This document shows, in pieces, positions 42,640 to 62,797 of a stretch of 64,000 nt of DNA. The stretch lies in NCBI GenBank assembly GCA_965197795.1, contig OZ240228.1:171765-235764 (forward strand). Reading direction: 5' to 3'. The notes under the pieces were generated by a model that was not told where the DNA came from, made no database searches, and saw nothing but the letters and a program-made list of their open reading frames with translations. How positions within the stretch are numbered: position 1 is the first letter of the stretch; the number at the start of each line of letters is the position of its first letter. The position numbers were made by a program, and so were the translations under genes. Origin of the DNA: Dehalococcoidia bacterium. GTDB taxonomy: Bacteria; Chloroflexota; Dehalococcoidia; DSTF01; WHTK01.

Positions 42640-42763
42640 TTCAGACTCTCCTAACTTGCAATTGAAACTTGAGCTGTGTTGCACAGGCCAGCGCTGAGAT
42701 TCTAGCTCAACTTTCCAAAACTCGACTGCTTGTGGCCCGGCCCACGCCGTATTCTTTAGTGAG

Positions 42764-43471
42764 TTGTCAGAGAGGATTGATTCCTTGCAGCCTCCCAAAC
42801 TAGTCGCAATACCTGGCGGACAGGCCGTCGTGGGCTGCGACGCGGGTCGTCCCGACGAGCGGCCAGCGCACAGGGTGACGCTGAGGTCCTTTTGGACCGC
42901 TTGCCGTCCCGTAAGCAACCACGAGTACCTAGCCTTCATCTCAGCAACCGGATACCGGGCACCCCTCTTCGCAGAAGACGAGAGGTTTTCGCCACTCGCA
43001 CAGCCAGTCGTCGGAGTGAGTTGGCACGACGCTGTCGCCTATTGCCGTTGGTTGGAATCTGTTACAGGGATAGCCGTCCGGCTACCGACCGAGGCAGAGC
43101 GTGAATACGCAGCCCGGGGTGGCCTCCACGGTGCTGTCTGGCCCTGGGGTGAAGAGGCGCCTGAGCAGCGCAAGAGCATTCAAGAGATCGCTCAATTAGA
43201 GCAGCCCCATATCCCAACCTCCATTTGCAGCAATGGCTACGGTCTGATGTGCATGGCGGACAACGTTCACGAATGGTGCGCCAACTGGTACGTGTCGGAC
43301 TACAATCGCTCTTTGGGAGCAGAGTTGCCACAAGACCCTCCGGCGGTCGAACGCAGAGCGAGTCGCGGAGGCAGCTGGCGTCACCAAATCAAGTTCACTC
43401 GAGTCTCAGCGCGGTCCAGTCTGAATCCATGTTTCAGGTACAACGATTACGGATTTCGCGTCTACGTGTAA
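42764..43471 (+). CDS. Formylglycine-generating-enzyme (FGE-sulfatase/SUMF1/EgtB-C-terminal) domain protein
   Basis: FGE-fold blocks HRVTLRSFW, PVVGVSWHDAVAYCRWL, RLPTEAEREYAARGG, RGGSW...GFR. There is no DinB N-domain. 235 aa (the start may be internal). Confidence 0.7.
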   Translation: MSERIDSLQPPKLVAIPGGQAVVGCDAGRPDERPAHRVTLRSFWTACRPVSNHEYLAFISATGYRAPLFAEDERFSPLAQPVVGVSWHDAVAYCRWLESVTGIAVRLPTEAEREYAARGGLHGAVWPWGEEAPEQRKSIQEIAQLEQPHIPTSICSNGYGLMCMADNVHEWCANWYVSDYNRSLGAELPQDPPAVERRASRGGSWRHQIKFTRVSARSSLNPCFRYNDYGFRVYV

Positions 43472-43786
43472 CGGGGTGAGTCTGAGTCCAGTCCTCGCTA
43501 TCGTGCGAGGAGCTACGGAAGAGGGCGATCGCGCCAAGACTCATAGAATCTGCAACAGTGAGTTTGGGTCGCGACCACGATGCCGTCATAGTACGAGTTC
43601 GTGAAGAACGTCCCGCGGATGAGACGAGGCCGCTTCATTCTGACCTGGTGCGAACCGGATCTCTCGACATCAACTGGACCAGTGGCCCGGTCAACGTCAT
43701 GCAGTTGGTCGACACCTAGAAGACGGACGAACGGACATTAACGTATGTTTGTAACCGTAGATGTCCGTCAGTTGGTTGGAGATGCT

Positions 43787-45016
43787 ATGCAGAGAGTAAT
43801 GCTGCTGATCCCTGGCTCCAGTTATCGAGCAACGGACTTTATGCAGGCGGCTGCCAAACTCGATATTACGGCAGTCGTTGGCAGCGACGAGTGGAACCCG
43901 CTGCAAGACGTGCAGCCCGGCAATTATGCTGAGCTCAACTTCACTGATGTGGACAAAGGCGTTGAACGACTAGAGGCGTTTGCCCGCGAGTACCCGCTAG
44001 ATCGGGTCATCGCTGTCGACGATTCCGGTGTCCGACTGGCCGCTCAAGCTTCCCGTCGCCTTGAGTTGCCGCATAACTCTGTCTCCTCTGTCGAGGCAAC
44101 ACGCAACAAAGCGCTGCTTAGAGAAAGATTGGCCGCCGCCGGCATACCTTCTCCCACCTTTGAGGTGGCCGCCACGGGTAGCCAGGCTCGCCTTCTGACG
44201 CAGGGCTTACGTTTCCCCGTTGTCTTGAAACCGCTTGCCTTATCCGCTAGCCGTGGCGTGATCCGTGCGAATGACAGCGATCAATTCGAGAGCGCATTCG
44301 CCCGAATAGCCCAGATTCTCTCCGACCCTCGCAGCGTCGAAGAGTGCGGCCAACTGTCAGACCAATTCCTTATCGAGGGCTACATCCCTGGTATCGAAGT
44401 GGCGCTGGAAGGGCTCCTTACTGATGGAAGGCTACGCAAACTGGCCATCTTCGACAAACCGGATCCCCTCGAAGGGCCGTTCTTCGAAGAAACAATCTAT
44501 GTCACTCCTTCTCGCCTGCCGAATGGCGACCAGGGCCTCGTTGTAGAGATGGCTGAGCGATCCGCTGCCGCAATTGGCCTGAGAGACGGCGCGATCCACG
44601 TCGAGCTACGACTCAATGATGATGGTGTCTTCCCTGTGGACATAGCAGCGCGATCCATTGGCGGGCTCTGCTCTCGCGCTCTGAAGTTCGAGAACGGGCT
44701 CTCCTTAGAAGAATTAATCCTGCGCAACGCCATCGGTTCTGAAGTCTCTTTCGAAAGAGAGGCCGATGCGGCTGGTGTAATGATGCTCCCTATCCCCAAG
44801 GGTGGCATCCTTCGAGGCGTGGCTGGCGTAGAACTCGCCAAAGCTGTCCCACTGGTTGAATCTGTAGAAATCACAAGTCGGCCCGGGAATCTCCTAGTAC
44901 CCTTGCCCGAAGCGGGCGATTACCTGGGATTCATTTTTGCTCGCGGTAAAGGGCCTCAGGAGGTTGAGGTTGCGCTTCGCGAGGCACACCGGCTGCTTGA
45001 ATTCGACATCGACTAA
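43787..45016 (+). CDS. ATP-grasp enzyme, L-amino-acid-ligase/carboxylate-amine-ligase-like
   Basis: A pre-ATP-grasp N-domain, a central domain (NKALLRERLAAAGIPSP...VVLKPLALSASRGV) and a C-terminal Mg/ATP site (IHVELRLNDDG...PVDIAARSIG). About 410 aa from Met15 of the track ORF. Confidence 0.7.
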   Translation: MQRVMLLIPGSSYRATDFMQAAAKLDITAVVGSDEWNPLQDVQPGNYAELNFTDVDKGVERLEAFAREYPLDRVIAVDDSGVRLAAQASRRLELPHNSVSSVEATRNKALLRERLAAAGIPSPTFEVAATGSQARLLTQGLRFPVVLKPLALSASRGVIRANDSDQFESAFARIAQILSDPRSVEECGQLSDQFLIEGYIPGIEVALEGLLTDGRLRKLAIFDKPDPLEGPFFEETIYVTPSRLPNGDQGLVVEMAERSAAAIGLRDGAIHVELRLNDDGVFPVDIAARSIGGLCSRALKFENGLSLEELILRNAIGSEVSFEREADAAGVMMLPIPKGGILRGVAGVELAKAVPLVESVEITSRPGNLLVPLPEAGDYLGFIFARGKGPQEVEVALREAHRLLEFDID

Positions 45017-45074
45017 GACTTTAGATTCCAAGTGCCCGGTCGAGCGGAGCTAACTGCTCCGTTGTTGGCTCAGC

Positions 45075-46451
45075 TCAACAGAACCAGCCTTCTGTCAATC
45101 CAGGCACAACTCTCTTGGGCTGTGGTACAAGCACGGTTGGGTCGTCCCGACCAGTCAGCATGCGACTCGTGGCGTGCTTCACCTTGCCAAAGGTGACTTC
45201 GTAGGCCTCTCCGTGCGACTCGCTCTCCGAGGCGGTAGCTGCCTCGACGATGCTAGCCACCTCGGCCTGTAACTTGAAGATACGTGGATCAGGATTCGAC
45301 CATGTGTAGGTCAAGGCATCAGGGTCCAGCGGCCCGAGGAGGCCTTGAGCATCGACGACTTCAATGAGCGGGGAACCGGGCGGGATCAAAAGCTTCAGCG
45401 CGTACTGAACTGGCTGGACGTGCCGAACCAGTCCATTGTGCTCGACGAACTCCAATAGTTCACTAAAGTCCTCCAGGCTCACCCAGGGAGTAAAGGCGAC
45501 CCAGGTCGGTCTTAGGACGAGGCCGACGCGGTCGAGCATTGCGACGGCTCGATCCAAGTCCTCCCGCGTGTGCCCCTTTTGCAGCGTGCTGAGGATGTCG
45601 TCATTAGTAGACTCAAACGCGGATGTTACAAACAAGCAGCCAAGATCTCTTAGTCGCGGCAGTAATTCTTCGTATTCGAGCAAGTGCTCGACCTTGATCG
45701 TGACATCGAAGGTTGCGTCCGGATGACGCCGGTGAAGTTCCTCGACGATGCTCAACGAGTGCGGGAGCGCGTTTAAGAAATCGGGGTCTCCGAAGGTGAT
45801 GTGACGGGCGCCCATCGTCACCAGCTGGTCAATGTCGGCGAGGACAGTCTCTTTCTGTACCAGGCGCAGTCGGCCAGCGTATACAGACGTAATGGGGCAA
45901 TGTGTGCAGGTGTGGGCACAGCCGCGGGAAGCCTCCACGTACCCGGCCAGCCTCATGTCACCATCGAGGTCAAGGCGCGCGTAGTCATCGAGATGAGGCA
46001 GGCCTCGGCGATCTGGGGTGAGGTAAGCCTGGCGGCTGAAGAGAGGGACGGCGCCAACGCCGGCCAAAACTCCGCCACCTTCACAAGCCAGGTTCCGGGC
46101 CAAGGCCTCAAGACCAATCTCGTATTCTCCACCGATTACCGAATCGGCCAACCCAGAGCTCATGAGCAGGTCGTGCAAGGGTGATGCGTAGAGGCCGTAA
46201 AAGGCGATGTGTAGATTCGCGTCTATCTGCCTGATTCGCCGGGCCAACTCTATGCCGAGACGGGAGGCAGTGTGCATCGGGATCGAGATGCCGACCAACT
46301 CGGCCTCTGCGAACAGGCCTGGCTCCAGCGTCTGGACGGACAAATCCAGGCAATCGACGTCGTGGCCGGCGCTCCGAAGCACCGCAGCGGGCGCCGCAAG
46401 CCCCAAGGGCTGATGCCCCATCTCGTAGGTAGAAACGAGGAGGACTCGCAC
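45075..46451 (-). CDS. B12-binding domain radical SAM protein
   Basis: The N-terminal cobalamin-binding Rossmann-like domain (MRVLLVSTYEMGHQPLGLA) is followed by the CAHTCTHC CxxxCxxC motif. Confidence 0.85.
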   Translation of the reverse strand: MRVLLVSTYEMGHQPLGLAAPAAVLRSAGHDVDCLDLSVQTLEPGLFAEAELVGISIPMHTASRLGIELARRIRQIDANLHIAFYGLYASPLHDLLMSSGLADSVIGGEYEIGLEALARNLACEGGGVLAGVGAVPLFSRQAYLTPDRRGLPHLDDYARLDLDGDMRLAGYVEASRGCAHTCTHCPITSVYAGRLRLVQKETVLADIDQLVTMGARHITFGDPDFLNALPHSLSIVEELHRRHPDATFDVTIKVEHLLEYEELLPRLRDLGCLFVTSAFESTNDDILSTLQKGHTREDLDRAVAMLDRVGLVLRPTWVAFTPWVSLEDFSELLEFVEHNGLVRHVQPVQYALKLLIPPGSPLIEVVDAQGLLGPLDPDALTYTWSNPDPRIFKLQAEVASIVEAATASESESHGEAYEVTFGKVKHATSRMLTGRDDPTVLVPQPKRVVPGLTEGWFC

Positions 46452-46456
46452 CAGCC

Positions 46457-47074
46457 TTACTTCTTTGTGGGTTGGTAGTAGGGGTTTTCGCCGGACGCGT
46501 GGTCAGTTTGGTCCACGACTCGTTCGATCTCGGAGACAGCTTCGACGATGGTGGCTTCGATCCCTTGCTTCAACGTGACGTCCGCCATGCCGCAGCCCTG
46601 ACAACCCCCGCCTAGCTCTATGACGGCAGTTGTGCCTTCGACGTGAAGGAGATCCATGTAACCGCCGTGTGCTGCGATCGCTGGGTTGAGTTGATCATCG
46701 ATAATGTGCTGAATTTTTGCTTCAATTGCGCCCCACCACAGGGGGTTCGGGTTAGTAAACTCCAGGCCGCTACGGTCTTCCCCTTTGTAGCGGTAGTGGA
46801 CCTGTACAGCGCTGAGGTAAGCGGCATTCTTTCCCTCTACGAAGATCGGGACAGGCAGGCCTGGCTCCGCCAAGGGTAGGTCTCCCTCCGTCTCTTTCCC
46901 TTGTTCGACAAGACTCAATACATGCTCGAACCTGCCATGCACCCTGCCGGTGATCTGGAGACGCAGACCGGCAACAGGGCTCGGGCTATTGCCGACGACC
47001 TCACGCAGTTTCGCGATTGCGTCATCCGTCAAGCTGACAGATGGCTCTGCGGATTGCTGCCTGGTGTCAGTCAT
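46457..47074 (-). CDS. NfuA-like Fe-S cluster carrier (degenerate A-type N-domain + Nfu C-domain)
   Basis: The C-terminal GGCQGCGMADVTLKQGIE matches the Nfu CxxC motif. The N-terminal ~100 aa are HesB/IscA-like without the full Cys triad. Confidence 0.65.
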   Translation of the reverse strand: MTDTRQQSAEPSVSLTDDAIAKLREVVGNSPSPVAGLRLQITGRVHGRFEHVLSLVEQGKETEGDLPLAEPGLPVPIFVEGKNAAYLSAVQVHYRYKGEDRSGLEFTNPNPLWWGAIEAKIQHIIDDQLNPAIAAHGGYMDLLHVEGTTAVIELGGGCQGCGMADVTLKQGIEATIVEAVSEIERVVDQTDHASGENPYYQPTKK

Positions 47075-47306
47075 TTCTCACCTCGGGATCTGGTCCCCCT
47101 GCTAAACGCCGTTACTAGTTTACGCCCTAAGAGCGCTTCAGATTATGCGCGGATGGCGTCACGGGCAGGTTGACAAGTGGGGTAGCTTCGCAACGAGGCC
47201 TCTTTGTTGAGCTGGATCTTCGATTTTGTGAGGGACTTCAGCGCGTGTATAGTCTTAACAGACTGTCCAGTGGGGGCATCGTTACCAGAGTATCGAGGTT
47301 GCACAA

Positions 47307-48014
47307 ATGGACAAGGTAGAGAAAGTCAATGAATTACTCGGTCTGCGGATCCCAGCCGTCGCTGTGTCGTTTCTCGACGAGCCGCCGACTGGGTTACGTG
47401 CCTGGGATGGGCCACCTCAGCCTGCCGGTTGTGCCTTTTGGCGTTGGGCAGCTGAGGGGCGCGCCTTCTACACTGAACCGTCCGACCACTACAACTGCGC
47501 GATAGGCTCCTACACCCACGCAATCGACCTGCCACCTGCGCGATCCAGTGAACTGGACGAGACGGTAAAGATGATGGTAAGGGCCAGCTACCTTCGAACT
47601 TCAGAAGTGCCCGAGATACCACGGCTAGCTCAGACGCCAAACTTTATAGCCTATGGTCCTGCGGACGACCCCGGCTTTCAGCCCGATGTGGTGTTGATGA
47701 CTGCGACGCCGCATCAAGCGATGCTGATTTACGAAGCCACTATGCGAGCCGGTCTCAGTTCTCCGATCAGCAACATCATGGGTCGGCCAACCTGCGCCGT
47801 CTTGCCTCTAACATTGAGCAGGAATTCACCAGGTGTGTCGCTTGGATGTGCTGGTAACCGCGTTCACACAGGACTTGGTGATCATGAGCTTTACGTTTCG
47901 ATCCCAGGAGCGAATTGGTCCGCATTCAAAGCCAGCCTCCTGGAGATTCTCGTGGCGAACCGAACCATGATTGAGTTTTACGAGGAGAAGGAGAAGACAG
48001 GCGGTGTCTCTTAA
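47307..48014 (+). CDS. DUF169-family protein
   Basis: 235-aa ORF. VAVSFLDEP...GCAFWRWAAEGRAFYTE...NCAIGSYTH pattern recalled from DUF169; a by-memory assignment. Confidence 0.5.
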   Translation: MDKVEKVNELLGLRIPAVAVSFLDEPPTGLRAWDGPPQPAGCAFWRWAAEGRAFYTEPSDHYNCAIGSYTHAIDLPPARSSELDETVKMMVRASYLRTSEVPEIPRLAQTPNFIAYGPADDPGFQPDVVLMTATPHQAMLIYEATMRAGLSSPISNIMGRPTCAVLPLTLSRNSPGVSLGCAGNRVHTGLGDHELYVSIPGANWSAFKASLLEILVANRTMIEFYEEKEKTGGVS

Positions 48015-49571: not shown

Positions 49572-49643
49572 CTTGCGAGGGTAACAACCTAGTTGACTCA
49601 GTAACACATATGGGCTATGATTCTTTCGTAAGGAGTCAAAGCC

Positions 49644-50603
49644 ATGAGTGACAGCAATCCCGAAACCCTCATCGAAGCCATCCAGTTCTTCTCTGACCCT
49701 GGCACTTGCCAGGACTTCATGATGGCCATGCGCTGGCCGGATGGCGTCGTGGCTTGCCCTAACTGTGGCCGAAGTGATGTGCGCTACATCTCCACTCGCC
49801 GCCTGTGGGAGTGCAAAGAGAAACACGCCAAGCGGCAATTCTCGATCAAGGTCGGCACCATTTTTGAGGACTCGCCTATGGGCCTCGACAAGTGGTTGCC
49901 CTCCCTTTGGCTCATTGCCAACGACAAGAACGGTATCAGCTCCTACGAACTGGGCCGCGCTCTCGGCGTGACTCAAACAACTGCATGGTTCATGCTGCAC
50001 CGCATCCGACTCGCGATGCAGTCTGACGACTACACCAAGCTCGGCGGCACCATCGAGGTCGATGAGACTTTCATCGGCGGCAAGGCCCGCTTCATGCACA
50101 AGAGCGAGCGCGTGGGCAAGATCAAGGGGACAGGCACCGTGGGCAAGACTGCGGTTCTTGGTCTCTTGGAGCGCCACGGGCCGGACGGTCACAGCACCGT
50201 AAGGGCAAGTGTCGTTGCCAGCCGTCGGCGTAGTACTCTCAGCCCAGCGGTGCGCAGAAACGTTGCTAGCGGGGCGGTTGTCTACACGGACGCGCTGCCG
50301 TCCTACGCCGATCTGAAAGCTGACTATACCCACGGCGTTATCGACCACGCCGAGAAGTACGTCGATGGCAAGATTCACACCAACGGCATCGAGAATTTCT
50401 GGGCGCTGCTCAAGCGGGCCATCAAGGGAACCTACATCAGCGTCGAACCGTTCCACCTGTTCCGCTATCTCGATGAGGAAGCTTTCCGCTTCAACAACCG
50501 CAAGGCTAGCGACGGTGAGCGCTTCCTCCGACTCGCCCGCAGCGTCGTTGGCAAGCGTCTGACCTACGAAGAACTGACTGCAGTTACTACGACGCCAGCG
50601 TAG
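49644..50603 (+). CDS. IS1595-family transposase (DDE, N-terminal zinc ribbon)
   Basis: Zn ribbon CPNCGRSDVRYISTRRLWECKEKH, then a DDE domain (TIEVDETFIGG..., VVYTDALPSY, HTNGIENFWALLKR). The IS1595 family was recalled by motif; AGGAG RBS 8 nt upstream. Confidence 0.85.
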   Translation: MSDSNPETLIEAIQFFSDPGTCQDFMMAMRWPDGVVACPNCGRSDVRYISTRRLWECKEKHAKRQFSIKVGTIFEDSPMGLDKWLPSLWLIANDKNGISSYELGRALGVTQTTAWFMLHRIRLAMQSDDYTKLGGTIEVDETFIGGKARFMHKSERVGKIKGTGTVGKTAVLGLLERHGPDGHSTVRASVVASRRRSTLSPAVRRNVASGAVVYTDALPSYADLKADYTHGVIDHAEKYVDGKIHTNGIENFWALLKRAIKGTYISVEPFHLFRYLDEEAFRFNNRKASDGERFLRLARSVVGKRLTYEELTAVTTTPA

Positions 50604-50749
50604 GCAGGGAAGAGGCAAGCGTGGCAGAGCAACCCCGAAAGCCAAAGGAAGAGACGCCAATGGAGCGCCTAGAGCGGCTGGCGAAGAAGCTGCTGCGCGT
50701 ACCGAAGGCAGCAATCCAAGAGCCGAAGGACGATAGGCCACAGCCGCAG

Positions 50750-51859
50750 TCATGAAATCGCTTTCTTCAACTCATCTACGAAGTTGCGAGTATCTAGGTA
50801 GTAATTGGGGTAGGTTTGGCGAAGCGCCATTAGGGATTCTGCCGAAACTAGCACAGCGTCCTGATGCCCACCATCATTGAAGGTGGCCCGCTCGATGCCT
50901 TGATAGTCAATCAATGCACGCTGTAAGTCATTCGCCTGATACCCAGTAATCTTGACCGTCCTGGCATCCGCGTCCAGTTCCACAAGGTAGTAGAAGGCCT
51001 TCTTGCCCGCGGTTGACTGGACATCAATGGCACTGGCGAACGCTTCCAAGTTGTCCGCAACGCGCAAATCCTCTGCATATCTCCTTAGGTCACTCTTGAG
51101 CGTCGCTCCATCCATAGGAGTCCGTGGTACAAGTGCGCAGTCTTCCTTTAGTGCGAACTGCGATCCTATGAGGGCAAAGAAGCGCTTCCAATTCCTTGTC
51201 CCTCTACCAGCTTTGAGAGCTTGTCGTGTGAATATATCGACGGTCTCCACGGCTGTTGCCCAAGTATGCTGTAGTTGTGAGCGGAACTGCATTTCAATTC
51301 GATAGCCGTCATACTCTGGTCGCCGCTCACTTCCGTAACTAAAAATGAGATGGACGCCCCGATACCCAGAAGGTTTCGGTCCACGAATGTAGTCATTGGT
51401 ATAAAGGAGGTCGTGGCGGCGAGTATATTCCTGATATGCCTCAACCAGGTCATCTACCTTTTCAACTGAACTAAGCACCGCCCTACAACCTGCTATGTCT
51501 TGCATCTCTGAGAGCGTGAATTTGTCCTTATACTTACGAAGCTTGCTATAAATAGCGGGGAAGCGCTTTAAGCGCTGAACGACAAGGGAGTGCTTCTCGA
51601 CATCGTCAGCCTTGGATCGCAAAGTTGTCTGAAAGACGTTTAATGGATGGCCATGTGCGGCTCGCCAACTATCGAGAACGTCGAGCGCAGTAGTTAGCCG
51701 ACGGGAGTCCCCGGGTTCGCGCGATCCTTGGTTAGCTGCCCACCGCAGCAATTCGTTGCCAGCCTCGTTAACCTCTTCAGGGTTGAAGTGCGGGACAGCA
51801 AAGGGCATAAGGCACCTGCCACGGCCAGCCAAGTTGGTCTGACTACTAACCTTAGCCAT
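50750..51859 (-). CDS. RelA/SpoT-homolog nucleotide pyrophosphokinase domain protein (toxSAS / CapRel-like single-chain architecture), IS passenger
   Basis: The synthetase-fold motifs RLKRFPAIYSKLRKYKDK (RxKxxxSxxxK), DIAGCRAVL (DxxGxR), PKPSGYRGVHLIF (GYxSxH) and RIEMQFRSQLQHTWATAVE (ExQxRT...W) are all present. Roughly 95 aa N-terminal and 135 aa C-terminal extensions flank the domain. Confidence 0.6.
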   Translation of the reverse strand: MAKVSSQTNLAGRGRCLMPFAVPHFNPEEVNEAGNELLRWAANQGSREPGDSRRLTTALDVLDSWRAAHGHPLNVFQTTLRSKADDVEKHSLVVQRLKRFPAIYSKLRKYKDKFTLSEMQDIAGCRAVLSSVEKVDDLVEAYQEYTRRHDLLYTNDYIRGPKPSGYRGVHLIFSYGSERRPEYDGYRIEMQFRSQLQHTWATAVETVDIFTRQALKAGRGTRNWKRFFALIGSQFALKEDCALVPRTPMDGATLKSDLRRYAEDLRVADNLEAFASAIDVQSTAGKKAFYYLVELDADARTVKITGYQANDLQRALIDYQGIERATFNDGGHQDAVLVSAESLMALRQTYPNYYLDTRNFVDELKKAIS

Positions 51860-51886
51860 CGTAGCCCCCGTGACTTACTGAGTCAA

Positions 51887-54800
51887 CTAGGTTGTTTCCC
51901 TTGCGAGGTCCCTTGTGGCGAGGAACTCGTCGATTATCGAGGCAGCTTCTTGGTGACGGCCTGAGTATTCCAGGTAGATAGCACGCTGAGCAGCAAAGAC
52001 GCCGCCGAGTGCCCATAGGTGAGTCGGCTCGGCAATGCCCGCGAGCGCTTCTTCCGGCCGACCGAAATAGAGTAATGCTCGGCGTTCTACCTGGCCCGCC
52101 AATTGACGACCGACAGGTGCAATGCCGGCGCTTTCTGCAAACCCTCGCATCTCCGCGCCGAGCGCTAGGCAGTCCTCAAGGGCCCCATCCATGGCCGCAA
52201 GCACAGCACTTAAACCAAGCTCAACCAGCCTGACAGCGGGTCTCGGGACCCGATCCGCCAGCTCATGGCAACGAGACGCCGCCATCTCCGCCCGTGTTCG
52301 GTCGCCCCACATTAGAGCCGTAAAGAAGCAGGAAGACCATAGAAGCTCTAAGTCATGTGCATACCCTTCGGGTACGGGCTGAGCCCAGACCACTTCAGCA
52401 GCCTTGAGCCTCTCATCGATGTCTTCCACTGGCGCATTCTGCCCTATGACAATAGTCCTTGCGGCAGTCAAAGTCTCACGAAAATCCTGGAGATTCTGAG
52501 CCGTTGCGAAGGAGCGCAGATTGATGCGCCAGGCTTCATAGTCCCTGCCTTTCCCTCTCAGTACAGTGGCTAGCGCATCATCCGCCACGAGCCGGTGGAT
52601 GGTGTCGGGGGGGGGGGGTACTCATCCGCGCGCGAGGCCCAGAGCTCCCGTAATGTCTCATCCGAATCACGCATACCGCTTCGATTAAGGGGGACTACGG
52701 CACTCCAGGCGACCGTACAAGCGCGTGGCGCGTGCTCGTCGCCCAGGAGAACGCCTATCTGGAAGGCCTCCTCAGCGATAGACACGGCACGCTCGGGCCC
52801 GCCGCTCTGTGTCAGCGATTCAGCGAGAGAGATCAGCAAGTCACAACGCTTCGCCTTGTCGTCCGGGTCAATGATGTTCTGTACCTCCAGTGCTCGCTCC
52901 AGATGACGCACGGCTTCGCCATACGCGAACACCGAGATAGCACGGTTCGCTGCCAGCTCGCCATACTCGATAGCCCTTTCCAGGTCAGCGCGGTCTGTTG
53001 ACTGCCCGAAGTGCTCAGCCAGCTCGGCAGCGTGCTCCTCACGGCGTGAGGCGTACTGGGCCTCCAGAGCACGGGCGACCTCCTGATGGAGACTGAGGCG
53101 ACGCGGTGCAATCATCTCCTCGTAAAGCGACTGCCGGAAGAAGGCATGCGCAAACCGGTAGCGCACGGCACCGGGCAACGACCGCTCTTCCAGTACTCCA
53201 ACCCGCACCGCTTCCTCAATGCCCGTCAGTAGGTCGTCTTCGCTGAGGCCCGCCACTCCGCGCAGCGTCTGTAGGTCAAAGTCACGGCCGACGGCGGCCG
53301 CAACGGAGAGAAGTCGGTTACAGCTCTCGCTCAAGCGGGACAGGCGCTTACCCACCACGTCCCGCAGTCCCTCGGGTAAGCCGGTGCTGGGGCCGGTACC
53401 CTCGGACAGCACGTAACGACCTCCCTCGCGTACCACCAGGCCTTCCTCGACCATGTAGCGCATGACCTCCTGGACGAAGAGGGGATTGCCTTCCGTCTGA
53501 CGATGAATAGCCTCCGCCCGTGCCCATGAGACGTCCTGGCCCCGGAGAGAAACGTGCATGCGGTGCACCTCGTCCACCGTGAGTCCGCGTAACGGAAGCC
53601 GGAGGAAGGTTTCGCTACGTCTCAGCTCTGCCAACGTCGCCGACAGTGGATGAGCGCGGTCAACCTCCACGTCGCGGTAGGTGCCTACCACTAACAGTCG
53701 GGAGCCGTGGAGGTTACGTGAGAGATGGAGCAGCAAGTCTAGCGTGCCACTGTCGGAGTCGTGCAGGTCTTCGAGGACGAGGAGTAACGGCTGCACCGTT
53801 GTGGCGTTGCGCAGGAAGCCTGTTACTGCCTGTAGAAGACGGTAACGCTCCTCCTCCGGGTCACCGAGGGGCTGCAGCTCCACCTGAACGCGGTCACGCA
53901 CCTCAGACACGATGCGAGCGACCTCAGCTGCACCGGTACCCAGGTCAGACTTGAGTCCATCAGGCTCGCGCTCTAAGACGTAGGTGCGCAGAGCCTCGAT
54001 GAACGGTAGGTAAGGTAAGGAATGCGAGCCCTCCTCATAGCAGTGACCGACCAGCGTCTTACCACCTCGCAGCGCAGCGTAAGTGGCTAATTGCTCACAG
54101 ACCGATGTCTTGCCGATGCCGGGTTCACCTACGACCATCGCCAGCGAACCCTGACCGGACAGGGCCGTGTCGAAGGCTTTCTGTAGCTGTTGCAGCTCCT
54201 GCTCGCGCCCGACGAAGGTCCTCTGGTAGGTCGGTCATGCGCGTGCGGTGTCTCCTCGACGTGCTGCAAACTCGCTCCGCCCGGGCTGGCAGCGTTCTCC
54301 AGCGCCTCCCTGACTTCCGCGGCTGATGTCGGTCGCCCACCAGCGTCCTTCTCCAACAGCCTGAGGATCAAAGCCTCCAGCCCCGCAGGGGCAGTCGGGT
54401 CGGTGCCAGGTCGGCGCCACCGGCGGCGTGTTGAGGTGCTGGCCGATGATCGCCACGTGCTCGTCACCGACGAAGGGGGGCCGGCCGCAGACCATCTCGT
54501 ACAGCATCGCCCCCAGGGAGTAGAGGTCACTCTGCGGTGTTACCTCCCCTCCCATGGCCTGCTCCGGTGGCATGTAGCTCACCGTGCCCACCATCATCCC
54601 CGCCTGGGTGAGGCGGCTACGGTCTACGGCTACGGCTAGGCCAAAGTCACCGATCATCGCCCGGCCGTCCTCTGCCAGCCAGACGTTACCTGGCTTTAGG
54701 TCGCGGTGGATGATGCCCTTCTCGTGCGAGAACTCCAGGCCCATACAGGTCTCGGTGGCTATCTTGACCGCCTGCTCTATCGAGAGTTTGTGGTCTTCTG

Positions 54801-55326
54801 CCTGCTCAATGACGCCTTCTACGTCGCCACCGGGTAGCACGGGCAGGATGAGGTAGGGCTGACCGTTCTCTTGACCGATGTCGTAGACGGTGACGATGTG
54901 GGGGTGGGAGCCGAGGCGTCCCATGGCCTGGGCTTCACGGGTTATGCGCTGTCTGGCCTGTTCGTCCAAGCCTTCGGTCTTGATCAGGGCGAAAGCGACG
55001 TCACGGTCGAGCTGGGTGTCGTGGGCCAGGTAGACGCGCTTCTTACCGCCCTCGCCCAGGAAGCGTTTGACCTCGTAGCGACCAGAGGCGAAGGAGGTGG
55101 GCTGAGGTGCGGTACGGGCAGGTGGCGTCGGGGTCTGAGTATCGGGCAAAACCAAGACAGATCTCTCGGCAGCCGCCAGGAAAGCCTTCGCGTCGGCATT
55201 CTCTGGGTCAAAGGCGAGGATGCCTTGGGCTTTCTGGCGGACTGATTCCCAATCGAGTTGGTCAGCCGCCTCCTCGGCTTCGTCAAGGAGACGATTAATA
55301 CGACCCTGAATACGTTCACTGGTCAC
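51887..55326 (-). CDS. Giant Hanks-type Ser/Thr protein kinase - AAA/NB-ARC-like ATPase - TPR regulator (PknK/MalT-like), currently in 4 frame-pieces
   Basis: Kinase 55326..~54500 (GEGGKKRVYLAHD, HRDLKPGNVWL, DFGLA, SDLYSLG). The kinase tail (LEALILRLLEKDAGGRPTSAAEV) is in the +1 frame (ORF 54129..54530), then returns to the original frame for the AAA part 54138..52570 (GEPGIGKTS Walker A, LLVLEDLHDSD Walker B). A G12 tract at 52607-52618 separates the TPR part 52588..51887, which continues across the IS into 49571..49144. Confidence 0.7.
52607..52618. repeat. Homopolymer G12 (C12 on coding strand, encoding PPPP) at the AAA/TPR junction
   Basis: With 12 Gs the frame terminates 36 nt downstream (...YPPPPTPSTGSWRMMR*). 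With 13 Gs it reads through into ORF 51887..52588 (...YPPPPDTIHRLVADDALATVLRG...). Confidence 0.8.
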
Positions 55327-55516: not shown

Positions 55517-56842
55517 ATGCTGACAAAAGAAGATAACGAGCTCATAAACCAGGTCGGTCCGGGTACTCCGATGGGGAATCTGCTGCGGCGCTATTGGGTT
55601 CCCGCGCTCCTCTCAGAAGAGCTATCGACTTCGGATTGCGAGCCCGTCGAAGTGCGGCTACTGGCTGAGGACCTCGTCGCCTTCCGCGACACGGAGGGCA
55701 GAGTCGGCCTGATTGATTCCTGCTGTCCTCACCGCGGCAGTGGCATGTTCTACGGCCGCAACGAAGAGGGCGGCCTGCGCTGCGTTTACCACGGATGGAA
55801 GTACGACGTGAACGGCCAATGCATTGATATGCCTTCGGAGCCGCCGACCAGCAACTTCAAGGACAGGCTGAAGATTCCCGCTTATCCTGTGCATGAGTCT
55901 GGCGGCATCGTCTGGACCTACATGGGGCCGCCGGAAACGATGACGGGCTTTCGCGATTTCGGCACCGAGAACTTACCGCGTGAGCGATGGCAAGCAAGGA
56001 AGCAGTTCCAGCCCATGAGCTGGCTGCAGTGGATGGAGGGCCTCATGGACACCACCCACAACTCCTGGCTACACCACTGGAAGGGCAGACTCGCTCTGGA
56101 AGACGACGGCTCCGACACGCCCGGCGTCTACAACTCGAATACCGGAATGCAGAAGTTCTGGGGTTACGACCAGGCCCCGGAGATTCGTGTGCACGAGGCT
56201 TGGCACGGCTTCCGAGCGACGGGCTTGCGCAAGACCCCCAACGGCAACACTCACGCTCGGCTCTATGCCTTCGTGATGCCCTACCTCTGCGGACCAGGTG
56301 GACGAAGCTTCATCGTCCCGCGCGATGAGAACACGGTCTACGACTATCACTTCGCGACGGTCCACGATGACCTGTGGAGCGAGGTCGTAATGGACGGGGG
56401 GGATTTCTTCGGGCAGCGGCGGCGTCCCATTCCCGGGCAACCGTACGGGCCTGACAACATCGACCGCAACTTGGCGAACAAGTTCCTCATCGACCGTGAG
56501 TTGCAGAAGGACGGTACGATCTTCACTGGCATCACCAGCACCAACGCTCAAGATGTGATGGCGCGACAAACGTCGTACACCGATCGGACAAAGGAACACC
56601 TTGGCAGCCTCGACCGGAAGATCATTCTCGTGCGCCGGATGTTGATCAACGCGGCAAAGAACCTGGCCCGCGGCGTCGAGCCGCCGGTGACCGACCCGTC
56701 GCTGCCCTACGACAAGATCGGCTCACCAAGTAAGGTTCTGGCGCCGGGCGAAGACTGGACGATCCTCGGGTCCGAGCTCGACCCTATTTACGAGGGCGCA
56801 AGGCCGGGCGCCGTGGCCGCGCCGCCGCCGCTCGCGACTTAA
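55517..56842 (+). CDS. Rieske non-heme iron oxygenase, alpha (catalytic) subunit, phthalate-dioxygenase-like single-component type
   Basis: CCPHRGSGMFYGRNEEGGLRCVYHGW (Rieske CxH...CxxH) followed by a mononuclear-iron His box (NSWLHHWKG). The antisense ORF 56069..56599 is rejected. Confidence 0.8.
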   Translation: MLTKEDNELINQVGPGTPMGNLLRRYWVPALLSEELSTSDCEPVEVRLLAEDLVAFRDTEGRVGLIDSCCPHRGSGMFYGRNEEGGLRCVYHGWKYDVNGQCIDMPSEPPTSNFKDRLKIPAYPVHESGGIVWTYMGPPETMTGFRDFGTENLPRERWQARKQFQPMSWLQWMEGLMDTTHNSWLHHWKGRLALEDDGSDTPGVYNSNTGMQKFWGYDQAPEIRVHEAWHGFRATGLRKTPNGNTHARLYAFVMPYLCGPGGRSFIVPRDENTVYDYHFATVHDDLWSEVVMDGGDFFGQRRRPIPGQPYGPDNIDRNLANKFLIDRELQKDGTIFTGITSTNAQDVMARQTSYTDRTKEHLGSLDRKIILVRRMLINAAKNLARGVEPPVTDPSLPYDKIGSPSKVLAPGEDWTILGSELDPIYEGARPGAVAAPPPLAT

Positions 56843-57325: not shown

Positions 57326-60238
57326 GTGGAAGCCGACATTCAGGAACTCGCGCTTGGCCTGCTTGAGACGTCGCAGCAACGTGAACCGATCACGTTAACC
57401 CCGGCCTGGTGGCAGGCGCGCCTGCTGGAATGGGCCACCGGGGATCCCAAGTTCCGCGTTAAGCTGCTGCGTTTCGTCGATGTTTTGCCTTCGCTGCGGA
57501 CAAGTGGAGCACTGGCCGATCACATCCGTCAGTACTTCCGTGACGAGTCGCCCTTCTTGATCCAGGCGGGAGCACAGCTGGCGACGCCAGTTCTCTTCCG
57601 CCCGGTGGTATCGCGCGTGGTGCGTGAGGGCGTGCTGGCAATGGCGCACCGTTTCATCGCTGGGGAAACGGCGGAGGACGCGATACCCCGATTGCAGGCG
57701 CTGGCGAAGGAGGGCGTCGGATACACGGTCGACTTGCTGGGCGAGGCCACGTTGTCGGAGCGAGAGGCCGACGTATACCTCGATCGATACGAGAGCCTGC
57801 TGCGGACACTGGTACAGGAGAGCCCTGGGCCGCAGGCGGGCGTCTGGCAGGGCGTCCCGCCGGTGAACCTGTCGGTAAAGCTGACGGCGTTATACCCGCA
57901 CTTCGAGACAGCAGCGCCGGAGCACATTAGCCGAGCCGTGCAGGCACGTTTGGGGCCGCTACTACAGCTGGCGAAGCAGCACGGCGCCTTCGTCAACGTG
58001 GACATGGAGCAGTACGCCTACCGCGACCTGATTCAGCGGGTGCTCGCCGACGCAGTGCTGGAAACGGAGATGCGCGACTACCCGCACTTCGGAGTCGTGG
58101 TACAGGCGTACCTGAAGACGGCGGAGCAGTCGATCGAGTTCCTGAGGGAGCTGGCGCGGCAGCGGGGCTCAGCGCTGACGGTACGGCTGGTCAAAGGTGC
58201 CTACTGGGACGAGGAGCGCATCGTAACGGCGCAGAACGGCTGGCCGGTCCCCGTCTACGAGGACAAGGCGGCAACCGACGCATCGTTCGAACGGTGTACA
58301 GATCTGCTACTGGACGCGTGGCCCCATCTCGAACTTGCGGTTGGCAGTCATAACCCGAGGTCGATCGCGCAGGCCATCGTCAAGAGCCGTGAACGAGGGT
58401 TGGAGAACGAGGTCGAGTTCCAGATGCTCTACGGCATGGCCGATACGTTGCGCCAGGCGGTGGCCGAGCAGGGCTTTCGCACGCGGATTTACGTGCCAGT
58501 GGGCGCGATTATTCCCGGCATGGCTTACCTAGTGCGGCGACTCTTGGAGAACACGTCGAACCAGTCGTGGTTCGTCAAGGAATCGCTGGAAGTGACACCG
58601 GAAGAGGTCGTGCAGCCGCCGACCCCCGCGCCGCAGTCCAGCCCGGAAGCAGTCGGCAGCGGATTCCGAAATACCGGGCTTGCGGCGTTCCACGAGCCTG
58701 ACCAGCGGGACGCAATGTCGTCGGCGCTGAAGCGCATGCGCAGCGAGTTCGGCGGAGTGCAGCCGCTGCTGCTTGCCACTCGTCCCGTGCACGACGGGCC
58801 GAAGATCGAGATACGCTGCCCGGCGGAGCCTTCGCTGGTCCTGGGACAGGTGGCGCAGGCCACGATTGCTGACGCCACAACGGCTGTTGAGGCGGCGAAG
58901 GCGAGCTTCGACGAGTGGCGTGGGTTGGGCGTCAAGGGGCGGGCGGCGATCCTGCGACAGGCGGCATCGGTGATGCAGGAGCGGCGCTTCGAGTTGGCGG
59001 CGCTGATGGTCTACGAGAGCGCGAAGCCGTGGCGCGAGGCGGACGGCGATCTTGCGGAGGCCTGCGACTACCTGCGTTACTACGCCGAACAGGCTGAGCG
59101 CCTCATGCGCCCTGAGCGGCTCGGCTCGGTGCTGGGCGAGGAGAACGTCTACCTGAGAGAACCGCGCGGCGTGACGGCCGTCATTGCACCTTGGAACTTC
59201 CCGCTGGCGATCATCACTGGCATGTCTTCGGCGGCGTTGATTGGCGGCAACTGCGCGATCTTGAAGCCGTCTGAGCAGTCACCCTTGATCGCCGCCAAGC
59301 TGGTAGAGATCCTTCGCGAATCCGGAGTGCCGGACGGTGCGGTTCAGTACCTGCCTGGAGCCGGCGCGGAGGTTGGACGAGCTCTCGTAGAAAGCGCCGG
59401 TGTGGATACGATTGCGTTCACCGGCAGCAAGGAGGTTGGGCTCGACATCGTCCGGCGAGCGGCGCAGCCAAAGAGCGACCAACGCAACGTAAAGCGCGTC
59501 ATCGCCGAGATGGGCGGTAAAAACGCCGTTATCGTGGACGAGGACGCCGACCTGGACGAGGCCGTGGCGGGAGTTGTCAGTTCGGCATTCGGTTACGCAG
59601 GTCAGAAATGCAGCGCCTGCAGCCGGCTCATCGTGGTTGGGACCGCTTACATAGAAGCTGTGGACCGGCTCGCTGCCGCTATCGAGAGCCTCATAGTGGG
59701 GCATCCTGAGGATTCTGCGACTTTCGTACCGCCGGTGATCGACCAGGATGCGAAGCAGAGAATCGAGCGCTACATCGAGCAAGGAAGGCAGACGGCAAGA
59801 CTGCTGGCGCAGGCCACCGTGCCGGATTCAGACGGCTACTTCGTCGGCCCGGCCGCTTTCGTCGATGTGGACCCCACTAGTCCCTTGGCCCGCGATGAGG
59901 TCTTCGGACCGGTGCTATCGATCTTTTACGCACGGGACATGGACGCTGCGCTGGCGCTGGCGATGGACTCCGAGTTCGCGCTGACAGGTGGACTGTTCTC
60001 TCGCAACCCACGCAACATCGAGAAAGCAAAGCAGGCGTTTCGGGTCGGCAATCTGTATGTGAACCGCACGATAACAGGCGCAAAGGTCGGCCGTCAGCCG
60101 TTCGGCGGCCTGGGGATGTCGGGCGTGGGTGACAAGGCTGGCGGTCCCGATTACATTCTGCAGTTCCTCAGCCCACGCACGATTGCTGAAAACACGGCCC
60201 GTCGGGGCTTTGCGCCGCGTGCAGAATATGACGCCTGA
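57326..60238 (+). CDS. putA: Bifunctional proline dehydrogenase / L-glutamate-gamma-semialdehyde (P5C) dehydrogenase PutA (no N-terminal DNA-binding domain)
   Basis: 970 aa. A PRODH TIM barrel occupies the N-terminal half. The ALDH superfamily C-terminal half has the catalytic Cys region (FGYAGQKCSACSRLIV) and Glu (AEMGGKNAVIVDEDAD). Confidence 0.9.
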   Translation: MEADIQELALGLLETSQQREPITLTPAWWQARLLEWATGDPKFRVKLLRFVDVLPSLRTSGALADHIRQYFRDESPFLIQAGAQLATPVLFRPVVSRVVREGVLAMAHRFIAGETAEDAIPRLQALAKEGVGYTVDLLGEATLSEREADVYLDRYESLLRTLVQESPGPQAGVWQGVPPVNLSVKLTALYPHFETAAPEHISRAVQARLGPLLQLAKQHGAFVNVDMEQYAYRDLIQRVLADAVLETEMRDYPHFGVVVQAYLKTAEQSIEFLRELARQRGSALTVRLVKGAYWDEERIVTAQNGWPVPVYEDKAATDASFERCTDLLLDAWPHLELAVGSHNPRSIAQAIVKSRERGLENEVEFQMLYGMADTLRQAVAEQGFRTRIYVPVGAIIPGMAYLVRRLLENTSNQSWFVKESLEVTPEEVVQPPTPAPQSSPEAVGSGFRNTGLAAFHEPDQRDAMSSALKRMRSEFGGVQPLLLATRPVHDGPKIEIRCPAEPSLVLGQVAQATIADATTAVEAAKASFDEWRGLGVKGRAAILRQAASVMQERRFELAALMVYESAKPWREADGDLAEACDYLRYYAEQAERLMRPERLGSVLGEENVYLREPRGVTAVIAPWNFPLAIITGMSSAALIGGNCAILKPSEQSPLIAAKLVEILRESGVPDGAVQYLPGAGAEVGRALVESAGVDTIAFTGSKEVGLDIVRRAAQPKSDQRNVKRVIAEMGGKNAVIVDEDADLDEAVAGVVSSAFGYAGQKCSACSRLIVVGTAYIEAVDRLAAAIESLIVGHPEDSATFVPPVIDQDAKQRIERYIEQGRQTARLLAQATVPDSDGYFVGPAAFVDVDPTSPLARDEVFGPVLSIFYARDMDAALALAMDSEFALTGGLFSRNPRNIEKAKQAFRVGNLYVNRTITGAKVGRQPFGGLGMSGVGDKAGGPDYILQFLSPRTIAENTARRGFAPRAEYDA

Positions 60239-60308
60239 AAGATCCGGCACGGTAAATGACCCCAAGCCTACGTACCAGAAGCTAACCGCCTGAGCACGGA
60301 GAATCCTT

Positions 60309-62385
60309 ATGCGAATACTCATGTGTCCACCTCAACACTTCGGTGTCGAGTACGTGATCAATCCATGGATGCAAGGCAATGTCGGTGCGGGGTCGGCTTC
60401 GAGAGCCCTGTTGCAGTGGCAGGGCTTGCGCGAAATCCTCGAGGAACAGGCGGCCGTCCAGACCATCGAGTCGATCGAAGGGCTACCCGATATGTGCTTC
60501 GCCGCAAATGGCGGTTTCGTCCTGGAAGACGTCTTCGTCCCTGCGGTGTTCAGCGTTCCGCAACGCAGCCCCGAATCGGCTCTCTACACATCCTGGGCGG
60601 AAAACAACGGTTTCAGAGTCGTCCAGTTACCCGTCGACCACGCCTTCGAGGGCGAGGGCGATGCGCTCTGGTGGCCAGATAGTGAACCCATCCTTTGGGC
60701 GGGATACGGTGTTCGAAGCAGCCTCGAATCTCATCGCGATCTATCCGAACTGCTGAACGTCGAAGTCGTTTCGCTGCGCTTGGTGGACGAGCGGTTCTAC
60801 CATCTTGACACGTGCTTCGTACCGCTCCCCGAAGGTCGAATCATGTATTTCCCCGCCGCGTTTGACGACCGCTCGCGAGCTGTTATCGAGAAGCACGCGC
60901 GTCCGGAAAATCGGATCGAGGTGGGCGACCGGGACGCGCTCAATTTCGCTTGTAACGTCGTCCGCTTGGGTAAATCATTGATAACCAATGCTGCCTCCGA
61001 CGAGCTTCGGACTGCACTGGATAAATGGGGATATGTCGTCCGAACCACCCCCATGGATGAGTTCATGAAGGCCGGCGGGGCCGCAAAGTGTCTATCCTTG
61101 CTGCTCGATCAAGCAACGCCGGACACCTCCACATTCAGCCGACGCGAGCCGGCAGCCTCTCCGATTTCTACCGAAGTAGTCGACCTCAGAGGTCATCTCC
61201 TAGACGATGGGATACTGACCCGAGCGCTTGACGCCGTGACCCTGTCCGGCGGGAGTTTCCGGTTGGAGAACTTCCGCGCTGGAGAGCGTAGCGACCAGAT
61301 GAGCCATGCTCGTTTTGCCGTGAGCGCGCCGGAAAAAAGCACGCTGGACGAGATCATCGAGCAGCTACAACGCTATGGCGCAGAGACCGCTTCCGAGACA
61401 ACGTCCGCTCTACTAACAAGTGTTACGCAAGACGGGGTTGCCCCTGAGGACTTCTACTCCTCGACGATCTACCCGACCGATATTCAGGTTGATGGCCGGT
61501 GGATACCGGTTGATCGCCAACGGATGGATGCGGCGATCGTCGTCGACACCAAAGGCACTCCGAGCGCCGTCTGCATGCTGATGCGCGACCTCAAAAGGGT
61601 GACCTAGTCGTCTGTCACGCAGACGGCGTACGTGTTCGTCTCCCCGATACCCGTCGCGCAGAGCGCGAATTTGCGTTCATGAGTGCCGGCGTCTCGAGCG
61701 AACGTCGAGTCGAAAGTGACATCGAAAGCTCGCCTGGGAGATGCGGCGCATCCGCGCAAGAAAAGGTCGTATCGTGGTCGTGGCCGGCCCGGTCGTCATC
61801 CACACGGGCGCGGGTCCTCACCTCGCGAAGCTCATTCGGAACGGCTACGTACAGGCACTCCTGGCCGGCAACGCCTTAGCCGTACACGACATAGAAACGA
61901 ACCTCTTCGGCACGTCTCTCGGCGTTGATTTGAAGCGGGGTTTAGGGGTCCAGGGCGGACACCAGCACCATTTGAAGGCCAGCAATCGCATACGCCAGGC
62001 CGGATCCATCCAGGAAGCGGTCGCGGCCGGCATCGTCGATGAAGCCGTAATGTACGAATGCGTTCAAGCCCAGGTACCTTACGTACTGGCAGGTTCCATA
62101 CGTGACGACGGTCCGTTACCCGAGACCGTGATGGATCTCATCGATGCGCAAACTGCCTATGCGGATGCGATTAGAGGTGCCGATATGATCCTCATGTTGT
62201 CTTCAATGCTGCACGCTATCGGAACCGCCAAGATGACGCCCGCGGGCGTAAGGCTAGTGTGTGTGGACATCAACCCGACCGTCGTTACGAAACTCGCGGA
62301 CCGGGGTAGCCTCGAATCAACCGGCATCGTTACCGACGTCGGACTCGTCCTCAATCTTCTCACGGCGCGTCTTCTCGACAACTAG
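60309..62385 (+). CDS. ArgZ/AgrE-like arginine dihydrolase: amidinotransferase-fold (guanidino-modifying enzyme) N-domain + LOR/SDH-like C-domain, interrupted near 61600-61740
   Basis: The N-terminal ~270 aa have the GME-superfamily 5-bladed propeller pattern (MRILMCPPQHFGVEYVINPWM...YHLDTCF...AAKCLSL with C-terminal catalytic Cys). Track ORF 61741..62385 (VVVAGPVVIHTGAGPHLAKLIRNGYVQALLAGNAL) is LOR/SDH-like. The two are separated by ~130 nt with a stop/frameshift. Confidence 0.55.

Positions 62386-62726: not shown

Positions 62727-62797
<71 letters not shown>

Follow-up and report, generated by a model that had tools for sequence, protein, structure and literature searches.

We analyzed a 64,000-nucleotide stretch of the genome of a Dehalococcoidia bacterium (Chloroflexota; GenBank assembly GCA_965197795.1, contig OZ240228.1, positions 171,765 to 235,764 of the forward strand), referred to here in its full length as the window. 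Toward its right-hand end lies putA, predicted to encode a bifunctional proline-oxidizing enzyme, followed on the same strand by a gene of the argZ/agrE type that is interrupted as sequenced (Table 1). An earlier reading of the bare sequence (the original prediction) had placed a ~690-amino-acid (aa) ArgZ/AgrE-like gene beside putA and a break near positions 61600-61740. The gene coordinates proved to be exact, the repaired product is 692 aa long, and the break spans 61593-61728, where two 1-bp deletions distinguish the window from all relatives.

Pfam domain analysis of PutA revealed PutA_N, Pro_dh and Aldedh domains (E values of 2e-23 to 2e-137) in one intact 970-aa open reading frame (ORF). 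The score of the protein against the NCBIfam model PRK11904 was 673.9 bits and thus under the cut-off of 747. The best named matches of PutA are from Dehalococcoidia, at 61-72% identity, and a 100%-identical PutA is encoded on a 3.2-Mb contig. The housekeeping transketolase of the window likewise has its best named matches (72-73%) in metagenome-assembled genomes (MAGs) designated 'Dehalococcoidia bacterium.' A terminator scan of the 70-bp spacer between putA and argZ found none, and because the spacer contains no terminator-like site, the two genes are likely to be cotranscribed. Promoter and terminator scans of the locus were uninformative, and the sole match in an Rfam scan was a tRNA (72.9 bits), with no regulatory RNA.

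The argZ gene was represented by two ORFs separated by a gap of 133 bp. The upstream 432-aa ORF matched the NCBIfam arginine dihydrolase model (E = 5.6e-98) and the Pfam LOR/SDH family PF04455 (E = 8.6e-29), and the downstream 214-aa ORF matched the Pfam family ArgZ-like_C_2nd (PF21570; E = 1.1e-93). On the NCBIfam model bifunc_ArgZ, which is 696 positions long, the two ORFs occupied positions 5-428 and 482-692, respectively. When the region 61480-61860 was translated in three frames, the missing piece (GDLVVCHADGVRVRLPDTRRAEREFAFMSAGVSSERRVESDIE) was found to be read in the third frame. The gene therefore contains two separate -1 shifts and not one. A repaired ArgZ was built by inserting one base at each frameshift site, giving a protein of 692 aa. 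PF04455, PF21571 and PF21570 are collinear in argZ; as sequenced they are split over three frames, and in a sibling protein of 689 aa (P0369) they lie on one polypeptide.

Table 1. Features of the putA-argZ locus and of the surrounding repeat, in window coordinates
Feature	Position	Strand	Description
putA	57326-60238	+	970 aa; predicted bifunctional proline dehydrogenase/glutamate-gamma-semialdehyde (P5C) dehydrogenase; intact; no DNA-binding domain
putA-argZ spacer	60239-60308	+	70 bp; GGAG 8 nt ahead of the argZ ATG
argZ/agrE-type gene	60309-62385	+	Arginine dihydrolase plus LOR/SDH-like ornithine cyclodeaminase (predicted); two -1 frameshifts; 692 aa once repaired
argZ fragment 1	60309-61607	+	432-aa ORF; whole arginine dihydrolase domain (residues 1-~265), PF04455 region (289-388) and start of ArgZ-like_C_1st
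Frameshift site 1	61593-61596	+	A4 run; A5 in all relatives (CTCAAAAAGGGTGAC = L-K-K-G-D)
argZ middle segment	61598-61726	+	Third frame only (GDLVVCHADGVRVRLPDTRRAEREFAFMSAGVSSERRVESDIE); homologous to the AgrE 430-475 region
Frameshift site 2	61726-61727	+	One G missing between these positions; GAA-GAG-CTC in relatives, GAA-AG-CTC in the window
argZ fragment 3	61741-62385	+	214-aa ORF that starts at an internal ATG; covers the Rossmann-fold portion of the cyclodeaminase domain; carries G580A, N642K and F681V
tRNA-Gly(GCC)	34166-34240	+	ARAGORN; Rfam tRNA, 72.9 bits; presumed integration target
Direct repeat, left copy	34199-34269	+	71 bp: 42 bp of the tRNA-Gly 3' half plus 29 bp downstream
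Direct repeat, right copy	62727-62797	+	341 bp past the argZ stop codon; far end of the segment; also present in sibling L081

Identity of the repaired enzyme

The original prediction had described an amidinotransferase-fold N-terminal domain with a Cys nucleophile joined to a LOR/SDH-like C-terminal domain, and had proposed a profile search of both halves. When this search was run, the arginine dihydrolase, PF04455, PF21570 and TIGR00300 models were all matched, in agreement with that description. Against TIGR00300, the repaired ArgZ scored 542.4 bits (cut-off, 410.8), with residues 287-689 aligned to model positions 2-404 of 407; the unrepaired fragments scored 129.5 and 337.2 bits, each under the cut-off. 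Alignment with proteins of solved structure extended this similarity over the whole protein. Over residues 2-689, the repaired ArgZ is collinear with residues 6-691 of the Anabaena AgrE structure 6LRF (E = 3.6e-239; ~55% identity) and with the Synechocystis ArgZ structure 6JUY (E = 4.8e-232), and its C-terminal 400 residues align with 3C2Q (E = 8.9e-93).

Further inspection of the N-terminal domain revealed that N67, E114, D118, H165 and C261 are the counterparts of AgrE N71, E118, D122, H168 and C264. All five are kept, and the five positions are invariant in 51/51 homologues. Their catalytic roles would be those assigned in structural work on ArgZ and AgrE, with C261 presumably serving as the Cys nucleophile.

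These alignments confirm, at the level of sequence, that the window gene is a true AgrE/ArgZ-type fusion. Two scores weigh against this assignment. The repaired ArgZ matched bifunc_ArgZ over model positions 5-692 of 696 with 939.5 bits, under the cut-off of 1025, and it matched the arginine dihydrolase domain model with 325.8 bits, under the cut-off of 450. The bifunc_ArgZ model is of the type 'exception,' and we assume that it is tuned to cyanobacterial proteins.

AgrE (Alr4995 of Anabaena PCC 7120; structures 6LRF, 6LRG and 6LRH) and ArgZ (Sll1336 of Synechocystis PCC 6803; 6JUY) have the same three-part architecture as the window protein, share its five active-site residues and also have PutA as their pathway partner. 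The cyanobacterial enzymes are 703-707 aa long, compared with 692 aa for the window ArgZ. Unlike theirs, the host of the window gene is not a cyanobacterium, and here argZ adjoins putA and is frameshifted twice. The window protein also falls in a mixed Planctomycetota/Gammaproteobacteria/Acidobacteriota clade, apart from the cyanobacterial sequences. The C-terminal domain resembles the stand-alone ornithine cyclodeaminases of TIGR00300 (such as 3C2Q) and passes their equivalog cut-off but, unlike them, is fused to an arginine dihydrolase domain.

By analogy with the characterized cyanobacterial enzymes, the N-terminal domain of the intact protein would convert arginine to ornithine, CO2 and two molecules of NH3, using Cys261 with His165, Glu114, Asp118 and Asn67. 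The TIGR00300-type C-terminal domain would then cyclodeaminate ornithine to proline and NH3, and PutA would oxidize proline via P5C to glutamate. That the biochemically characterized members are all cyanobacterial counts against carrying this chemistry over to the window enzyme. Ornithine cyclodeaminases have been reported to carry a nickel-pincer adenine dinucleotide cofactor (Desguin 2025, as cited in PMC13524815). The NCBI name of TIGR00300 is ornithine cyclodeaminase, nickel-pincer nucleotide-dependent. No larB, larC or larE was found among the scanned ORFs of the window, which covers 64 kb of a genome of ~3.2 Mb, or beside argZ in the 80 loci described below.

The break in argZ

The same split into 432- and 214-aa ORFs was present in three further assemblies, L086 (6x), L087 (3x) and L088 (the Logan assembly of run ERR13605531). 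These matched the window at 99.94-99.985% identity, with zero indels over 5.4-6.7 kb, and the same-strain assemblies differ by single-nucleotide polymorphisms (SNPs). One such SNP (G/C at window position 62232) affects ArgZ residue 642, which is Lys in the window and L086 and the ancestral Asn in L087 and L088. As the frameshifts are shared among assemblies that differ at this position, N642K arose after argZ broke.

Indels were compared between the locus and housekeeping DNA. Nine indels were present when 9.7 kb spanning the locus was aligned three ways; eight were coding and seven frame-breaking, with non-homopolymer events and 2-bp deletions among them. Housekeeping DNA of the same genomes (17.8 kb) had 11 indels, of which 9 were intergenic and the other two were singleton coding indels. 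Per coding kilobase, frame-breaking indels were ~8-fold commoner at the locus than in the housekeeping DNA (P of ~0.006 by our own estimate).

The substitution pattern was also assessed. Compared with a relative whose argZ is 85% identical, the ratio of nonsynonymous to synonymous substitution rates (dN/dS) was 0.14. The window branch itself carried 6-7 nonsynonymous and 0-2 synonymous changes. Three of the replacements, G580A, N642K and F681V, change residues that 48-50 of 51 homologues share, and each lies 3' of the frameshifts; a fourth, A217V, is in the N-terminal domain, at a position that is Ala in 46/51 homologues.

Other lesions were seen in related genomes. Sibling L081 has a 2-bp deletion within the N-terminal domain of argZ. 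In sibling L085, a 9-bp in-frame deletion removes the near-invariant S-T-I of the motif YSSTIYPT, and putA is frameshifted too. The 85% relative has a 1-bp deletion near the C terminus of argZ in all three of its assemblies. A 98%-identical sequence (P0001) reads through both window sites but has a break of its own at another place, and an 87% relative is interrupted close to the C terminus, a pattern that at first sight resembled long-read error. The differing argZ and putA lesions in sibling strains suggest that the module is being lost in the lineage. We consider it quite probable, from these comparisons, that argZ has truly and recently become a pseudogene in the window, with the module in decay in this lineage.

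Several observations argue in the other direction. The contigs in all of these assemblies come from long-read metagenomes at low coverage (3x-16x), and error-like singleton coding indels do exist in them, in a transketolase gene of L090 and a dioxygenase gene of L091. The lesions of L081 and L085 were each seen in a single assembly, few substitutions were counted on the window branch, and L085 retains an uninterrupted 689-aa argZ frame.

These observations leave some room for the view that the frameshifts are sequencing or assembly artifacts and that the living cell has an intact 692-aa argZ and a working putA-argZ arginine-to-glutamate operon. Such a view draws on the low coverage of the long-read assemblies (3x, 6x, 8x and 15.7x in the contig names), the homopolymer at site 1 (A5 to A4), the probable error-type singletons in sibling housekeeping genes, the open 689-aa frame of a sibling and the long-term dN/dS of 0.14. 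We nonetheless judge it unlikely. Both deletions are identical in four assemblies that have zero other indels yet are distinct by SNPs, and no homopolymer is involved at site 2. Relatives whose local sequence is the same were read as intact, and neither the ~8-fold enrichment of frame-breaking indels over housekeeping DNA nor the unique replacements at near-invariant residues 3' of the breaks would be expected from artifact. Random sequencing error thus leaves the deletions shared by the same-strain assemblies and the enrichment of coding indels over the 17.8 kb of housekeeping DNA unexplained. Programmed frameshifting was considered separately and rejected. It would require two +1 events 131 nt apart, there is no known slippery or stimulatory context, and the relatives have the extra bases.

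The original prediction had suggested arginine catabolism as a nitrogen source at this locus, with the gene broken as sequenced. The break is most likely real and recent and is shared by four assemblies. As sequenced, the module is probably unable to make proline from arginine. What remains would be at most the 432-aa N-terminal part, taking arginine to ornithine and uncoupled from proline and PutA.

This remnant could in principle still be useful to the cell. The 432-aa product might yield ornithine, which an aminotransferase and the P5C dehydrogenase half of PutA would then take to glutamate, bypassing the cyclodeaminase. The 432-aa ORF does hold the whole N-terminal domain with all five active-site residues, the isolated N-terminal domain of ArgZ is stable and crystallizable (PDB 6JV0, 6JUZ and 6JV1), and putA is intact. 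However, the N-terminal domain carries A217V, the truncated protein ends in part of the C-terminal region, which is probably unfolded, the window showed no ornithine aminotransferase, and the L081 lesion lies in the N-terminal domain itself. We therefore regard partial function as decidedly improbable. Because argZ has most likely become a pseudogene only recently, metabolic reconstructions should not credit the organism with arginine-to-proline conversion.

Almost no weight can be given to the notion that the N-terminal domain is a DDAH or an arginine deiminase and that the 214-aa ORF belongs to a different gene, unrelated to it and starting independently. DDAH belongs to the guanidino-group-modifying superfamily and has the fold family and the Cys-His-acid apparatus in common with the window domain, and the DDAH model NF045659 (Mycobacterium tuberculosis type) does match residues 2-264 of the repaired ArgZ with 229.6 bits; the 214-aa ORF does start with ATG. 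Yet DDAH is a single-domain protein of ~280 aa, and the score is under both the model's own cut-off (300) and the arginine dihydrolase score (325.8). Homology to AgrE continues unbroken through the gap in the third frame, and relatives at 98-99% nucleotide identity read through both frameshift sites. Together with the end-to-end alignment to AgrE and ArgZ, these results refute a DDAH or deiminase followed by a separate gene, and they bear out the original assignment to the ArgZ/AgrE type and the view that the C-terminal ORF continues the same gene.

Distribution of the fusion and origin of the pair

A search of 5.8 billion proteins with ArgZ returned more than 4,000 matches at E <= 1e-50, mostly of ~690-710 aa and with the same Pfam set. 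In addition, a scan of one genome per GTDB species identified 361 argZ relatives, and the best 80 loci were analyzed. These best 80 span at least 10 phyla and include Planctomycetota, Gammaproteobacteria (many of them sponge MAGs, and Azotimanducaceae), Terriglobia, Myxococcota, Spirochaetota, Verrucomicrobiota, Gemmatimonadota, Sumerlaeota, Nitrospinota and Binatia. Two of the 80 loci are cyanobacterial (52-54% identity), and none is from Chloroflexota. The nearest relatives, at 70%, are from Phycisphaera (Planctomycetota) and sponge Gammaproteobacteria.

In a rough neighbor-joining tree, the window ArgZ was placed beside a Phycisphaera sponge MAG, inside a clade of Gammaproteobacteria, Terriglobia and Myxococcales in which phyla are intermixed. 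The cyanobacterial sequences were found elsewhere in the same tree, among Verrucomicrobiota. The original prediction had described the module as so far characterized in cyanobacteria and had proposed a tree that includes the cyanobacterial proteins. Membership in their family held up and the pathway is characterized only there; the fusion, however, occurs in at least 10 phyla, and the window copy belongs to another clade and is not near the cyanobacterial ones.

The flanks of the 80 loci were examined for recurrent neighbors. All-against-all clustering of ~1,000 flanking ORFs identified putA as the only widely recurrent neighbor of argZ, and tblastn with the window PutA detected a full PutA in the flanks of 12/80 loci. 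These putA-linked loci occur in Verrucomicrobiota, Myxococcota, Sumerlaeota, Binatota, Spirochaetota and others, and they are scattered over the tree. In 10 of them the order is argZ followed by putA on one strand, and in the window it is reversed. Given these opposite gene orders, the linkage is best read as having arisen more than once. The recurrence of putA beside argZ supports an arginine-to-proline-to-glutamate logic outside the cyanobacteria and, by the same token, a functional meaning for the linkage. A different context recurred in six of the loci, all from one group of sponge-associated Gammaproteobacteria, in which argZ is followed by a TldD/PmbA-like metallopeptidase pair, an ankyrin-repeat protein and a BCCT-type transporter. 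This arrangement was confined to that group and differs from the putA linkage.

The two genes of the window appear to have different histories. PutA is Dehalococcoidia-like, the nearest relatives of ArgZ are in other phyla, and the nearest three PutA relatives examined (77%, 73% and 71%) have no adjoining argZ. For these reasons argZ was apparently gained horizontally from another phylum and came to lie beside a putA of resident type, and the pair would have been assembled locally and not imported as a module. On the other side, the taxonomy of the host as judged from the sequence is based on the best-match names of two proteins only, PutA and transketolase.

The 85%-identical argZ gave further information. 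It lies among unrelated genes on a 6.0-Mb ENA contig (L083), and homology to the window begins ~120 bp upstream of argZ (L083 9883-10000 against window 60187-60308) and ends at the argZ stop codon. A remnant of the last ~50 bp of putA is kept upstream of that argZ, from which it follows that this copy derives from a putA-argZ arrangement. The sequence evidence thus indicates that the arrangement is ancestral to the window and L083 lineages.

The claim of the original prediction that this is a horizontally mobile module stands in part. The origin of argZ in other phyla agrees with it, but PutA is host-like, its closest relatives have no argZ, and the pair was not cotransferred. The more specific idea that putA and argZ arrived together, ready-made, from a cyanobacterium on a tRNA-Gly island is extremely improbable: the pair does lie inside a segment bracketed by a 71-bp repeat and the pathway was characterized in cyanobacteria, but PutA is Dehalococcoidia-like and ArgZ is not, cyanobacterial ArgZ proteins are 52-55% identical and fall in another clade, the order is putA-argZ here and argZ-putA in 10 other loci, and what is shared with the 85% relative is argZ alone plus a putA stub.

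We therefore favor a joint reading, to which we assign a probability of about two in three, in which the locus is an arginine-to-glutamate unit in Dehalococcoidia whose argZ was gained horizontally and has recently been inactivated. On this reading argZ would have entered by horizontal transfer, landed 70 bp downstream of a host-type putA and then been inactivated by two 1-bp deletions, and it would now be decaying. The locus would illustrate, cleanly and on a small scale, how a gene gained horizontally can decay in parallel among sibling strains. What is new here is an enzyme of known kind outside the cyanobacteria, probably no longer functional, and thus a modest extension of known biology.

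The broader pattern of a widespread fusion, repeated putA linkage and parallel decay merits more attention than the broken copy of the window. The AgrE-PutA route of cyanobacteria has been described (PMC8262935), and a 2026 Coxiella preprint calls arginine dihydrolase 'characteristically found in cyanobacteria.' The literature still treats the route as a cyanobacterial speciality, whereas full-length fusions occur commonly in ten or more other phyla. Their wide distribution and linkage to putA provide comparative-genomic support for arginine-to-proline-to-glutamate conversion in heterotrophs and nominate candidates for biochemistry. More tentatively, fused AgrE/ArgZ with PutA could be a widespread arginine-to-glutamate route in heterotrophs of many phyla, spread horizontally and linked to putA repeatedly and independently, while the Dehalococcoidia copy would be undergoing parallel loss in all strains sampled. 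Such loss might arise if the host is unable to supply a need of the cyclodeaminase, for example the nickel-pincer cofactor.

The tRNA-Gly-bracketed segment and neighboring genes

The two copies of the direct repeat, identical at 71/71 positions, enclose 28.5 kb, and the putA-argZ pair lies at the distal end of this segment. Such an arrangement is a classic signature of site-specific integration. The G+C content is 0.602 within the segment and 0.638 in the left flank. Among the ORFs between the repeats that were scanned with Pfam, there were no integrase, recombinase, excisionase or conjugation genes, and an IS1595 transposase was the only mobility gene. In a search for an empty site or attP, a 26-mer of the putative attachment site had no exact match in JGI metagenome contigs or IMG/VR. 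The segment is present in all sibling strains, and no island-free relative was found.

Like known tRNA-targeted islands, the segment has a perfect repeat that includes the 3' half of the tRNA gene, accessory-looking genes, a slightly lower G+C content and a secondary IS1595 insertion. It differs from them in having no integrase and in carrying phylum-typical genes such as putA. We consider the segment to be probably an old integrated element. With neither an integrase nor an island-free relative, the case for an island comes down to the repeat, which weighs against this assignment. The island of the original prediction is accordingly supported by the exact 71-bp repeat with the tRNA-Gly 3' half, and no integrase or other transfer gene was found on it.

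Besides putA-argZ, the segment contains imuB-dnaE2, a ferredoxin reductase, a Rieske ferredoxin, an ATP-grasp ligase, a B12-radical-SAM enzyme, NifU, DUF169, a broken Ser/Thr kinase-AAA-TPR gene and a LigXa-like Rieske oxygenase, with a second one just outside. The rest of the window is ordinary chromosome and includes GH15, transketolase, DEAD helicase, ABC transporter, catechol dioxygenase and luciferase-like monooxygenase genes.

At the near end of the segment, directly following the tRNA-Gly, is a cassette that encodes a Y-family polymerase of the imuB type together with the error-prone polymerase dnaE2 (34799-39401, +). A gene with an S24 (LexA-like) peptidase domain is found ~11 kb upstream of this cassette (22431-23462, -). 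Next to the cassette, a UbiE/COQ5-type methyltransferase gene (39394-40118, +) appears to be split between two overlapping frames (39394-39912 and 39900-40118), indicating another probable frameshift inside the segment. A low-G+C (~0.575) cluster at 43745-48014 encodes an ATP-grasp L-amino-acid-ligase-like protein, a B12-binding radical SAM protein, a NifU-domain protein and a DUF169 protein, and may be a small-molecule or peptide modification cluster.

A 2.3-kb insertion at 49580-51900 is missing from the 98.8%-identical sibling contig L081. It carries the IS1595-family transposase gene (49644-50603, +) and a gene for a 369-aa RelA/SpoT-domain protein (50750-51859, -), perhaps a toxin or small alarmone synthetase borne as cargo of the insertion sequence. 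The Ser/Thr kinase-AAA_16-TPR regulator gene (51887-55326, -) is divided into at least three ORFs, with a G12 homopolymer near 52607; it shows five indels relative to L081, in which it is fragmented too.

LigXa-like Rieske oxygenase paralogues flank putA-argZ, at 55517-56842 (+) and from 62862 to beyond 64000 (-). The ferredoxin reductase and Rieske ferredoxin genes are located 13 kb upstream (41057-42939, -). Just past the position equivalent to the window end, sibling contigs carry a nitrile hydratase operon.

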